From a virus (lineage: Duplodnaviria > Heunggongvirae > Uroviricota > Caudoviricetes): a DNA stretch of 34,811 nt. The stretch lies in IMG/VR virus record IMGVR_UViG_2526164665_000032; one strand, 5' to 3'. This document shows, piece after piece, positions 30,001 through 34,811 of this stretch. Numbering within the stretch: position 1 is the first letter of the stretch; the number at the start of each line of letters is the position of its first letter. The position numbers were made by a program.

Positions 30001-33000
30001 TGTCCTGAAGGGTGAACAGCGTCGGGTCAGTGGTAGTGCCCGGGTTTCCCTCAAGCGCCGTATCTGGCTCAGGGATGCCGGGCAGTGCTGTCTCTGTGGT
30101 CGTGTGGTTGACCTCTGTGACAGTGAACTCGATCACCGAATTGCACTTCAGTTCGGTGGTGGTAATGAGGAGACGAATCTCTGGACGCTCTGTACCGAAT
30201 GCCATCGCCAGAAGTCAGTCAGTGAAACGGCGAGTGGTATGCCGGACCCGACGCTGCCGGAGGTGTCCGGAGGTCATGGCAGGGCAGACGATATCATCGG
30301 ACTGTGACCCGCCCCGGGGGGGATCATCCGGCGAAAAAAACGATCGCCCCGGACACCGCCCCCCGTCTCATGCAGAGAAAAAATTCCTGTTTCAGGCCAG
30401 TTAACATGTTAACTGGCTGCCCGGGCATTTTTTCGGTTTTTATCTTTATTATTCAGTTTGTTGTGCGAAAAAAATGTTAACTGGCTTTTTCAGCAAATGT
30501 TAACCAGGCAGCAGTTAACATTTGCGGCATGAGACGCCGGGAAAAATGGGCTGAACCATACCCGGCTGAGTGCGTTATGGACCCGGGAGAGGCTGTGCTG
30601 ACAACGCAAAAACGAAAATTTGCGCTGGCGCTCATGTCCGGGAAAACAAACAGCGTCAGCCATTGCCGCCGGTTATTCGGCGAAGACCGCCAGGGTTAAA
30701 GGCTCGCAGCTGGCGAAAGATCCGGAGGTGCTCGCGTTTATAGCCCGTAAACAGTGCGAAACGGTGGAGGTGGATGAGGTTCCTGTTTACCGGCAGAAAA
30801 AATCAGAGCAGGAGGATAAACCCCGTCGCCGTGAGGTGGCTGCAATACCACAGCCGGACGAAAACAATCCGGAGATGCCACCGCCCGCGGTGATGTCTCA
30901 TGGTATTGAATATATGGAGGATGGTCTTCCCGATCCGGTGAAAGCTATGGGGCAGATCCTGGTGGAAAACCTCAGCATTGATCCGAAACTGGCACTGGAT
31001 GCGGCCTGGCGACTGGCGCAGTTCACACACCATAAAAAAGGCGATGCCGGTAAAAAATCGGCAAAAGGTGATGCCGCGAAAAAAGCGGCTAACCGTTTTG
31101 CGGTACCACCACCACCACGACTGGTGGTGAATAACGATAATGAGGGCAACGGATGATACCTGTATGGAGCACGGCCTGCCCGGACTGGGCAGAGCGCCTG
31201 AAAAAGGGGCTGTCGATTATTCCGGCTCCGATTTATCCGGACCAGGCCGCACATGCCCTGGCGATTTTTAAACAACTGCGGATTGTGGATGCACCGGGTA
31301 GCCCGACGTTCGGGGAGTCCTGTGCACCGTGGGTGTTTGACCTGGTGGCGGCTCTGTTTGGCTCCTACGATGCGCAGACCGGTGTCCGCCATATCAAGGA
31401 AGTGTTCATTCTGATACCCAAAAAAACAGCAAGTCCACACTGGCCGCCGGGATCATGATGACGGCGCTGTTACTGAACTGGCGGCAGGCGGCGGGTTACA
31501 CGATTCTGGCCCCGACTGTGGAGGTGGCAGCCAACGCCTTCAATCCTGCCAGGGATATGGTACGACGGGACGATGATCTGGATGACCTCTGTCAGGTGCA
31601 GACACATATCCGGACCATCACCCACCGGGTGACGGACACCACCCTGAAGGTGGTGGCAGCCGATCCGAATACGGTGTCCGGTATCAAGTCCGTGGGGACA
31701 CTGATTGATGAACTGTGGCTGTTTGGCAAGCAGTACAAGGCGGAAGACATGTTACGTGAAGCCATCGCGGGCTTGCCTCCCGCCCGGAAGGGTTTGTGGT
31801 GTATACGACCACCCAGTCGAATGAACCGCCAGCCGGGGTGTTCAGACAGAAACTGCAGTACGCCCGGGATGTGCGCGACGGCAAATTAATGATCCGCACT
31901 TTCTGCCGGTGATATTTGAACACCCTCCTGAAATGGTGGAAAGCGGGGCTCACCTGCTGATGGAAAACCTCGCCATGGTCAATCCGAATCTCGGCTATTC
32001 AGTGGATGAGGCCTTTCTGTACCGGGAGTACCGTAAAGCCCGGGAAGCCGGGGAAGAGCATTCCGGGGCTTCATGTCAAAACACGCCAATGTGGAAATTG
32101 GTCTTGCCCTGCGCTCTGACCGCTGGCGGGGGCTGATTTCTGGGAAGAGCAGGGCAGGCGCATCAGCCTGGACGATATCCTGCAGCGCGCTGATGTGGTG
32201 ACGGTGGGGATTGACGGCGGAGGGCTGGATGATCTGCTGGGGATGTTTGTGATTGGGCGTGACCGGGAGACCCGCGAATGGCTGGGCTGGGGCCATGCCT
32301 GGGCGCATGAAACCGCGGTGGTCCGACGGAAGAGCGAGGCGTCCCGGTTTCAGGATCTTGTTGCCTGTGGAGATATGACCATTGTCCGGCGTGTCGGGGA
32401 TGACACGGCGGAAGTGGCGGAGTATGTGCGTCGCATTCATGAGGCTGAGTTACTGGACCATATCGGTATTGACCCGTCAGGGGTGGGGCAGATTCTGGAT
32501 TCACTGGCGGAAGCCGGGATCCCCGACGGAATTGTGGTGGGGATAAGCCAGGGCTGGAAACTGGGCGGGGCCATTAAAACCACCGAGCGCAAACTGGCTG
32601 AAGGGGTGCTGGTGCATGGTGACCAGCCCCTGATGGCCTGGTGTGTCGGCAATGCCCGGGTGGAGCCTAAAGGTAACGCCATTCTTATCACCAAACAGGC
32701 CAGTGGACGGGGAAAAATTGACCCGCTGATGGCGCTGTTCAATGCGGTGTCCCTGATGTCCCTGAATCCGGAACCGAAAAAGAAAGAATATGCGGTTTTT
32801 TTCATATAACCCTGTTCACACTGTAACCATCACGAACCGCTCCGGCGGTTTTTTTATTTTCAGGAGGCTGATGTGACTCTTAAACGGGCCTGTTCCCTGC
32901 TGACGGTGAAATCCTTCAGTGAGGATGAACGGGTGATCACCGGGATTGCGTCAACGCCTTCTCCGGATCGGGATGGTGACATCCTGGAGCCGGAGGGCGC

Positions 33001-34811
33001 GGAGTTTGGCAGTGCGATCCCGTTTCTCTGGCAGCATGACCATTCCCGCCCGGTGGGGCAGTGTACGGTACGCCGGGTCAGCGAAGGGCTGGAAATCACG
33101 GCAACACTGGTGAAGCCCGTACCGGATATGCCGTCGCAACTGGCTGCCCGGCTGGATGAGGTCTGGGCGGCCATTAAGACCGGGCTGGTCAGGGGGCTGT
33201 CCGTGGGCTTCCGTCCCCATGAATACACCTTTCTGGACGGAGGCGGACTGCATTTTCTGCGCTGGGAACTGATGGAGGTGTCTGCCGTCACCGTGCCCGC
33301 GAATGCGGAATGCACCATCCGGACCATTAAATCTTACGACCGCCCGTTTTCTGCCGCGTCCGGCAACCGGAAACCGGTGGTGAAAATCGCATCTTCTGCC
33401 GGCGCTGCGGCACAGTCAACAACCGTTTTTCATAAGGAAAAGACCATAATGAATATTGGCGAACAGATTAAAAGTTTTGAAAACAAGCGTGCAGCGCTGG
33501 CAGCCTCCCTTGAGGAGGTCATGACCAAAGCCGCAGAGGAAGGGCGCACGCTGGATGTGGAGGAGGAAGAGCACTACGACAACACCGCAGCGGAAATCCG
33601 TCAGGTGGATGCGCACCTGAAGCGCCTGCGTGAACTGGAAGCCGGTAAGGCCGCCACGGCGCAGCCGGTGAAACAGGCCGTACGGGAATGTGGCCGCGGT
33701 GGCTTCTGCGCCGGTGATCCGTGTGGAGCAGAAACTGGATAAGGGGATTGGCTTCGCCGCTTTGCCAAATCGCTGGCTGCGGCTAAAGGCGTCCGATCTG
33801 AAGCCCTGGAAGTGGCCCGTCGTCAGTATCCGGATGACAGTCGTCTGCATCATGTCCTGAAATCGGCAGTGGGCGCGGGGACCACCACGGATCCGCAGTG
33901 GGCAGGCAGCCTGTCTGAATATCAGGAATACGCACAGGACTTTATTGATTACCTGCGTCCGCAGACCATTATCGGGCGATTTGGTCAGGGCGGGATCCCT
34001 GCACTTCGTCAGGTGCCATTCAATATCCGCGTGCACGCCCAGGTGTCCGGCGGTGCTGCCGGCTGGGTGGGTGAGGGTAAGGCAAAACCCCCTGACGAAG
34101 TTTTGATTTTTGAATCCATCACCTTCAGTCATGCGAAGGTGTCGGCCATTGCGGTACTGACGGAAGAATTGATCCGTTTTTCCAGTCCGGCTGCTGATGC
34201 ACTGGTCCGTAATGCGCTGGCGGAAGCGGTGGTGGCGCGTCTGGACACAGACTTTGTGGACCCGAAAAAGCGGCGGTGGCGGATGTCTCCCCGGCGTCCA
34301 TCACCCATGATGTGAAGGGCACGGCATCAACCGGTAACCCGGATGCGGATGCCGAGGCCGCGTTTGGTCCAGTTTGTGACGGCAAAATCTGCAGCCCACC
34401 GGTGCGGTCTGGCTGATGTCCAGCACCAATGCCCTGGCGCTGTCCATGCGTAAAAATGCGCTGGGGCAGAAGGAATATCCGGACATGACCTTGCTGGGCG
34501 GGACCTTCCAGGGGCTGCCGGTGATTGTCTCCCAGTATGTGGGTGACCAGCTGGTACTGGTGAATGCACCGGATATTTATCTGGCTGATGACGGCGGTGT
34601 GGCGGTGGATATGTCCCGTGAAGCGTCACTGGAGATGCAGTCTGAACCGACCAGCGACAGCAGCACACCGTCACCGGTGGAACTGGTCTCCATGTTTCAG
34701 ACCGGCAGCGTGGCCATCCGTGCGGAGCGCTGGATCAACTGGCGTCGTCGCCGTACCGCGGCAGTGGCGGTGATCACCGGTGTGAACTACGGAACTGCGT
34801 CCGGTGGCTGA

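Follow-up and report, generated by a model that had tools for sequence, protein, structure and literature searches.

A fused prohead protease and major capsid gene, followed by the portal gene, in a family of Stx-converting prophages of Escherichia coli

Introduction

In phage HK97 the head genes run in the order terL, portal, protease, major capsid protein (MCP), and the gp4 protease cleaves the delta domain, an N-terminal helical scaffold built into the capsid protein, off gp5. We analyzed a different arrangement in IMG/VR record IMGVR_UViG_2526164665_000032, a 34,811-nucleotide (nt) stretch of Caudoviricetes DNA (the window throughout; the packaging and head features described below lie on its + strand). 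HK97 encodes protease and capsid protein in separate genes, whereas in the window members of the same protein families (PF04586/TIGR01543-like and PF05065/TIGR01554) share one open reading frame (ORF) after terL, and the portal gene follows the capsid gene in this phage family. The original prediction, made from the sequence, had drawn attention to the missing portal and proposed that either the family has a different gene order or the portal has been lost.

The closest described systems are phages 2851, YYZ-2008 and 1717 and the Stx1a and Stx2c prophages of enterohaemorrhagic Escherichia coli (EHEC) O157 and O26, where Stx is Shiga toxin. They share with the window a 645-amino-acid (aa) fused coding sequence (CDS) and the gene order, at 96-99% DNA identity; the window copy differs from them in carrying about 18 one-base indels and in ending ahead of the portal. 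The fusion is already annotated in the genome records of 2851, YYZ-2008 and 1717, and is in that sense known. A similar logic may be read in the C/Nu3 pair of phage lambda, where an in-frame internal start yields a short, abundant assembly protein alongside a long protease form, but the part shared by the lambda products is a scaffold and not the capsid protein, and for the present gene two products are suggested from sequence alone.

Independent protease-capsid fusions have been reported in Arthrobacter clusters AM, AU and AN, in Rhodococcus RRH1 and in Microbacterium cluster EE, and are described as "common in small-genome siphoviruses" (PMC5513430, PMC9671004, PMC6606914). The architecture recurs there likewise, but in unrelated lineages and in the order terminase, portal, capsid/protease fusion (PMC6606914). 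The NCBIfam family NF045541, "prohead protease/major capsid protein fusion protein", has the same named architecture but is a different fusion family; membership was ruled out, the match being partial and far under the cut-off (51.9 bits against 525). Two further candidate precedents were set aside: a preprint on the cyclic oligonucleotide-based antiphage signalling system (CBASS), which concerns a scaffold-protease fusion and not a protease-capsid one, and a paper on Sp5 morphogenesis, which concerns a short-tailed Stx2 phage with different head genes. Our literature search found neither an experimental study of the fused head gene nor a paper on head-protein processing in the family, and the passages searched of a 2025 EHEC phage proteomics paper hold nothing on the fused head protein.

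Results

The head gene of the window opens with a strong Shine-Dalgarno (SD) sequence, AGGAGG (32862-32867), a 5-nt spacer and a GTG start at 32873 (whole signal 32862-32875), in agreement with the annotated starts of YYZ_gp52 and EP2851_53; relatives carry GGAGG and ATG. From this start the ORF is unbroken for 289 codons and stays open through the protease domain, the linker and Met193 to 33680. The unbroken S78 (HK97-type) prohead protease domain occupies residues 1 to ~155 (32873-33337), with a Peptidase_S78 (PF04586) match at residues 48-152 scoring 37.1 bits against a cut-off of 21. It is followed by a variable, poorly conserved Ala/Gly/Ser-rich linker (residues ~156-192; 33338-33448), modelled with low confidence, in which an SD-like AAGGAA lies at 33434-33439. 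The in-frame ATG of Met193 (33449-33451) marks, from homologue conservation, the ancestral capsid N-terminus and is a candidate internal start. The remaining 33449-34811 (residues 193-645), split by indels, encode the delta/scaffold helices and the HK97-type MCP body; its later pieces, in other frames, match Phage_capsid, and the TGA stop codon is formed by the last three bases of the window.

The intact 645-aa orthologue carries the same domains in one chain: Peptidase_S78 at 48-152 (35.1 bits, cut-off 21), Phage_capsid (PF05065) at 386-635 (52.7 bits, cut-off 24.2) and TIGR01554 major_cap_HK97 at 204-584 (6e-22; 78.3 bits, cut-off 27.5). It also aligns over its full length with PHROG 617, the fused type of major head protein (1.6e-260; residues 1-639 on profile positions 7-626 of 626). 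A profile search of the PDB found the major capsid protein 9d9w (6.3e-06), and a direct PDB sequence search with the protein gave one weak capsid match. An AlphaFold2 (AF2) model, built from 25 homologues that are 73-99% identical, is usable for the protease domain (confidence score pLDDT about 70-84) and for the delta helices, two long helices at residues 195-222 and 229-261. A Foldseek search of the PDB with this low-confidence model returned herpesvirus assemblins/proteases as 8 of the top 12 matches, with weak E values of 0.02-0.16. We take His55 (WQHD) and Ser110 (GLS[VI]GF) to be catalytic residues of the S78 protease. Of 25 distant fused homologues, 24 keep the His and all keep the Ser, and both are invariant in 25 of 25 closer ones; the window itself reads GLSVGF. 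By its profile matches the protease domain is a relative of the TIGR01543 proheadases and no equivalog of them. The PF04586 and TIGR01554 matches and the modelled helices together bear out the prediction of a protease domain, a helical linker and an HK97-type capsid protein in one ORF, and its placement about 60 bp after terL agrees with the 63 nt that we measure from the terL stop (32809). Within the window the single gene is a reconstruction, backed by the intact relatives.

Those relatives are numerous. In YYZ-2008 (gp52), phage 2851 (EP2851_53) and E. coli O26:H11 11368 (WP_000173033.1) the head gene is a single CDS of 1,938 nt and 645 aa, labelled in GenBank "putative major head protein/prohead proteinase", "major head protein ... 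phage head maturation protease" or "phage major capsid protein". Of 5,426 complete E. coli genomes, 1,255 (23%) carry the gene, in as many as 7 copies each, and about 2,977 E. coli copies hold the intact 1,938-nt ORF. Clustered at 90%, the intact protein (P0001) stands for 9,916 member sequences, and among the best 120 of 2,494 homologues all contain PF04586, nearly always alongside PF05065. At 24 of 27 loci checked in gamma- and alphaproteobacteria the ORF is uninterrupted and codes for 632-708 aa; both Snodgrassella loci have split genes, a 234-aa protease and then the capsid, in unchanged order. This distribution indicates that the protease-capsid fusion is ancient.

Several loci and proteins vary the theme. 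The unfused module of Snodgrassella alvi (L030/L031, 6001-8042), in which a capsid gene with its own SD is followed by a small ORF and the portal, provides a natural control for the fusion. In a Parasphingorhabdus metagenome-assembled genome (MAG; L032, 5911-7709) a 353-aa capsid-like ORF precedes a 283-aa protease-domain ORF, a reversed arrangement, and no terL or portal match was found near the two. Two database proteins, P0002 (1,079 aa: terL ATPase domain, protease and capsid) and P0003 (784 aa: protease, capsid and portal), look like gene-calling artefacts from frameshifted assemblies of the fused head module; similar errors therefore seem common at this locus.

The portal is absent between terL and the protease and from the window as a whole, as had been predicted: tblastn with the family portal (N- and C-terminal halves), gp53 and the adaptor gave no match anywhere in it. 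The reason is that the capsid stop codon is also the end of the window. A 73-aa ORF (PHROG 829) comes next in YYZ-2008, phage 2851 and O26:H11 11368, and the portal starts ~210 nt past the capsid stop; this portal matches TIGR01537 portal_HK97 (2e-104) and is followed by a head-tail adaptor, head closure and tail genes. A probe that runs from the capsid 3' end across the small ORF into the portal 5' end aligns without a break in 92 of 92 phage records and in 1,244-1,250 of the approximately 1,255 E. coli genomes with the head gene. We further scanned one genome per species and recovered 29 related loci, from Enterobacterales, Marinobacter, Hydrocarboniphaga, Rhizobiales, Caulobacteraceae and Snodgrassella. 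The portal lies just past the head gene in 26 of them; the exceptions are a locus where the contig ends (L027), the differently arranged L032, and L019, where the portal follows and terL lies ~1.7 kb upstream. The window itself contains the HNH-terS-terL-fused head gene part of this order, and the gp53-portal-adaptor part is seen in the relatives. HNH, terS, terL, protease/MCP, 73-aa ORF, portal and adaptor are thus, across these genomes, the normal, old and conserved order of the phage family, found outside E. coli in prophages from gamma-, alpha- and betaproteobacteria, and the 73-aa ORF and portal of the source genome are expected ~45 and ~210 nt, respectively, past the last base of the window. 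Of the two explanations first offered, the different family order is the one that stands, and loss of the portal does not; a portal immediately downstream in intact relatives of the same order, which is what we found, had been named at the outset as the sign that the layout is normal for the family.

The portal of the relatives has features of its own. It is unusually long (861 aa; L001, 13430-16015, and also L003 and L005), with the HK97 portal domain at 45-388 and a C-terminal extension of ~470 aa that has a weak CBM_5_12 match and is absent in the Hydrocarboniphaga relatives. In the closest relatives of the window a run of six G is shortened to five at codon 449, separating portal domain from extension (the gene is labelled "frameshifted" in O26:H11 11368), and Stx1a_10314 has a 162-nt in-frame deletion in the extension.

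A second signal for translation may lie inside the fused gene. In all 25 fused homologues compared, an in-frame start lies at most 7 codons from Met193 and is preceded, at a distance of 5-10 nt, by a purine-rich SD. Met193 is invariant in Enterobacterales, where the site reads AAGGA with ATG; more distant homologues use ATG, GTG or TTG, namely GGAGG with GTG in Hydrocarboniphaga, GGAGG with ATG in Marinobacter, Mesorhizobium and a Caulobacteraceae MAG, and GGAA with TTG in another MAG. The linker around the site is otherwise unconserved. The free-standing Snodgrassella capsid gene begins at the position homologous to Met193, and the TIGR01554 alignment begins close to it, at residue 204. An equally good combination of SD and start is found near just 2.5-24% of positions per sequence; the product of these fractions over ten representatives is 1e-12, a value that overstates the significance, the sequences being related. 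On this evidence we lean slightly towards reading the fused ORF as a nested gene that would give both a protease-delta-MCP and a delta-MCP product.

Downstream of Met193 the reading frame of the window is broken repeatedly. The head gene has ~9 one-base indels, at 33680/33681, 33756, 34088-34092, 34104, 34107, 34264, 34368 and 34384; compared with O26:H11 11368 it shows 2 clear substitutions and about nine one-base length changes, which go in both directions and fall nearly all in runs of 2-6 identical bases. Over HNH, terS, terL and head gene together the window copy has ~18 one-base indels relative to Pankowvirus-type relatives. Against Stx1a phage Stx1a_10314 (LC744187), 18 of 34 gap characters and 18 of 20 substitutions lie within the last 4.5 kb, and the remaining indels are one-base changes in runs of 4-8 bases plus one 9-nt insertion. 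The affected stretch coincides with the one that EHEC genomes carry in several copies. The indel pattern was not reproduced in the 2,977 copies from complete E. coli genomes, the best of which reaches 99.4% identity. We consider that the frameshifts are most likely consensus or polishing errors and not real decay.

Elsewhere in the window one-base run-length differences from LC744187 occur at 7320, 9618, 9649, 14741, 15322, 21509, 22362 (just upstream of the stx A-subunit ORF) and 30315, and their scatter suggests a general base-run error problem in the assembly. Within terL, 32156-32188 holds 8 substitutions in 33 nt relative to LC744187, a cluster suggestive of a recombination or mosaic patch, or of paralogous prophage copies blended in the consensus.

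The source phage can be placed closely. LC744187 is its nearest relative, 99.8% identical to window positions 2583-34811 over an alignment of ~32 kb and colinear with it up to the last base of the window. The terS-terL-head stretch has 96-99% DNA identity to 94 phage records, all of them E. coli Stx1a-, Stx2c- or Stx2-converting phages, among them Enterobacteria phages YYZ-2008 and 2851 (genus Pankowvirus) and Stx2 phage 1717. Upstream lie an integrase gene interrupted by an IS3-family element, an RIP/Stx A-subunit gene, a nanS-p-like esterase gene, an antirepressor gene and an HNH endonuclease gene. These alignments identify the locus as the head gene of an E. coli lambdoid prophage that is Stx1a-converting and Pankowvirus-like. 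We also considered a satellite or a capsid-forming island, and ruled both out because the integrase, stx, lysis and packaging genes make the window a full Stx prophage.

The packaging module opens with the HNH endonuclease gene at 29942-30307 (Pfam HNH, 2.1e-06), which corresponds in position to YYZ_gp49 and ECO26_RS08485. The small terminase gene terS follows at 30598-31156, with a Pfam Terminase_2 match, 98% identity to YYZ terS by tblastn, and about two one-base deletions at 30646/30647 compared with relatives. The large terminase gene terL (31153-32809), recognized by a TerL_nuclease match and by tblastn pieces, is split into at least four frames, with one-base deletions at 31419, 31766, 31882, 32058 and 32124; its intact orthologue has 553 aa with TerL_ATPase and TerL_nuclease domains. 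Between the terL stop and the head-gene SD, a sequence scan finds a GC hairpin with a T-run that resembles an intrinsic terminator (32834-32861) and sits inside the Q-antiterminated late operon. The terL/head spacer has a hairpin in other Enterobacterales, Hydrocarboniphaga and Snodgrassella as well, with differing stem sequences, so that in this putative terminator-like element the structure is conserved and the sequence is not.

Two insertions distinguish the left part of the window from LC744187. One, of ~1.26 kb (1320-2582), encodes an IS3-family transposase (rve and HTH_21 domains) and divides the integrase region into a Phage_integrase catalytic part (576-1367) and an Arm-DNA-binding part (2536-3177), with an apparent 4-bp overlap at the integrase/IS3 junction. 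The other, at 4295-4303, is an in-frame 9-nt tandem duplication, GCTGCACTG.

Discussion

Taken as a whole, our explanation of the locus is a 645-aa protease/delta/MCP fusion with the portal downstream, frameshifts that are errors, and the mechanism proposed here, and we hold it to be very probable. In this mechanism a flexible linker connects an S78 protease with the delta (scaffold) domain and the HK97-type capsid body, and the covalent tether to the scaffold domain would bring the protease into the procapsid with no need for docking of its own. Once the procapsid is assembled, the protease would remove itself, the linker and the delta domain, comparable to the action of HK97 gp4 on gp5. The internal SD and Met193 start would probably also supply a protease-free delta-MCP, and the ratio of the two translation starts would set the amount of protease packaged, as in lambda C/Nu3. 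The broader proposal, that prophages of gamma- and alphaproteobacteria have retained a conserved internal ribosome-binding site and start, which would give abundant protease-free delta-MCP and few protease-tethered subunits, with dosage controlled by translation and not by docking, seems to us evenly poised.

Other accounts of the locus can be weighed against this explanation. That the head gene would prove, after error correction, to be two separate genes for protease and capsid is hardly credible: in the Snodgrassella relatives a 234-aa protease and the capsid protein are indeed encoded by two genes, and a start codon with an SD stands at the capsid N-terminus, but the frame of the window is open from 32873 to 33680 across the junction, and the gene is a single ORF in the E. 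coli copies and at 24 of the 27 wider loci. The original prediction had named such a pair of genes as an outcome that would contradict it; none was found, the junction being open in the window and in all E. coli copies. Loss of the portal, leaving a defective or satellite-like head module, is very improbable. It would fit the failure of tblastn to find a portal homologue in the window; yet the last base of the window is also the last base of the capsid stop codon, the portal lies within ~210 nt in the relatives examined, and LC744187 is colinear up to that end. Real frameshifts, with terL and head gene decaying as pseudogenes of a cryptic prophage, are improbable too, if less so. Lambdoid prophages of EHEC are in many cases defective, the portal of the closest relatives has a true frameshift (the G-run change at codon 449), and IS629 is inserted in terL of some relatives. 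Against decay stand the ratio of ~9 indels to 2 substitutions in 1.9 kb, mostly short-run length changes in both directions, the like changes at long runs elsewhere in the window (7320, 9618, 9649, 14741 and others), the occurrence of the pattern in no complete genome, and the clustering of the errors in the multi-copy part.

The internal start is the more contested point. The full-length fusion may be the sole product, the Lys/Glu-Gly-x-Met motif being conserved for a need at the protein level, such as a cleavage site, and not as part of an internal ribosome-binding site; we regard this as a serious possibility, although one we would not choose. The enterobacterial SD is weak (about -5.6 kcal/mol, in the top ~10% of positions), we estimate that a T=7 procapsid could accommodate a protease domain on each subunit, and for the actinophage protease-capsid fusions a single product is described (PMC5513430). 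A constraint on the protein accords poorly with a start that shifts in type (ATG, GTG or TTG) and position (by 1-7 codons) while the SD is kept, with a very strong SD (-10 to -12 kcal/mol) in four distant lineages, and with an unconserved surrounding linker.

Some results weigh against the explanation that we prefer, that of an intact fused gene with an internal start and a downstream portal. The protease domain scores 45.3 bits against the TIGR01543 proheadase_HK97 equivalog, under its cut-off of 59. The AF2 model as a whole has a mean pLDDT of 45, with the capsid residues 300-645 below 50 on a shallow alignment, and because this part of the model is poor the HK97 fold of the capsid part rests on hidden Markov model (HMM) matches. 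The internal SD of E. coli is modest (AAGGA, -6.2 kcal/mol, 10-nt spacing), and a literature search returned no protein data on products or cleavage sites of this head-protein family. The portal of the source genome is placed by its relatives, the window ending at 34811, and the reading of the frameshifts as errors draws on the assembled sequence.

The observation that started this analysis is real, but it is normal for the family and already annotated, and is not an anomaly. Its main value is as a quality check. The oddity reflects where the window happens to end and, probably, base-run errors in a multi-copy region; it does not reflect biology. What is mildly new is the conserved internal start alone, and we offer it as a hypothesis. 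The fused head gene is among the commonest prophage genes of pathogenic E. coli, and the nested start makes a cheaply testable proposal about head building in the long-tailed Stx1a and Stx2c phages. If it is true, the nested gene, the terL-capsid-portal order and the hairpin would define a distinct head-assembly layout in a very common EHEC phage family.

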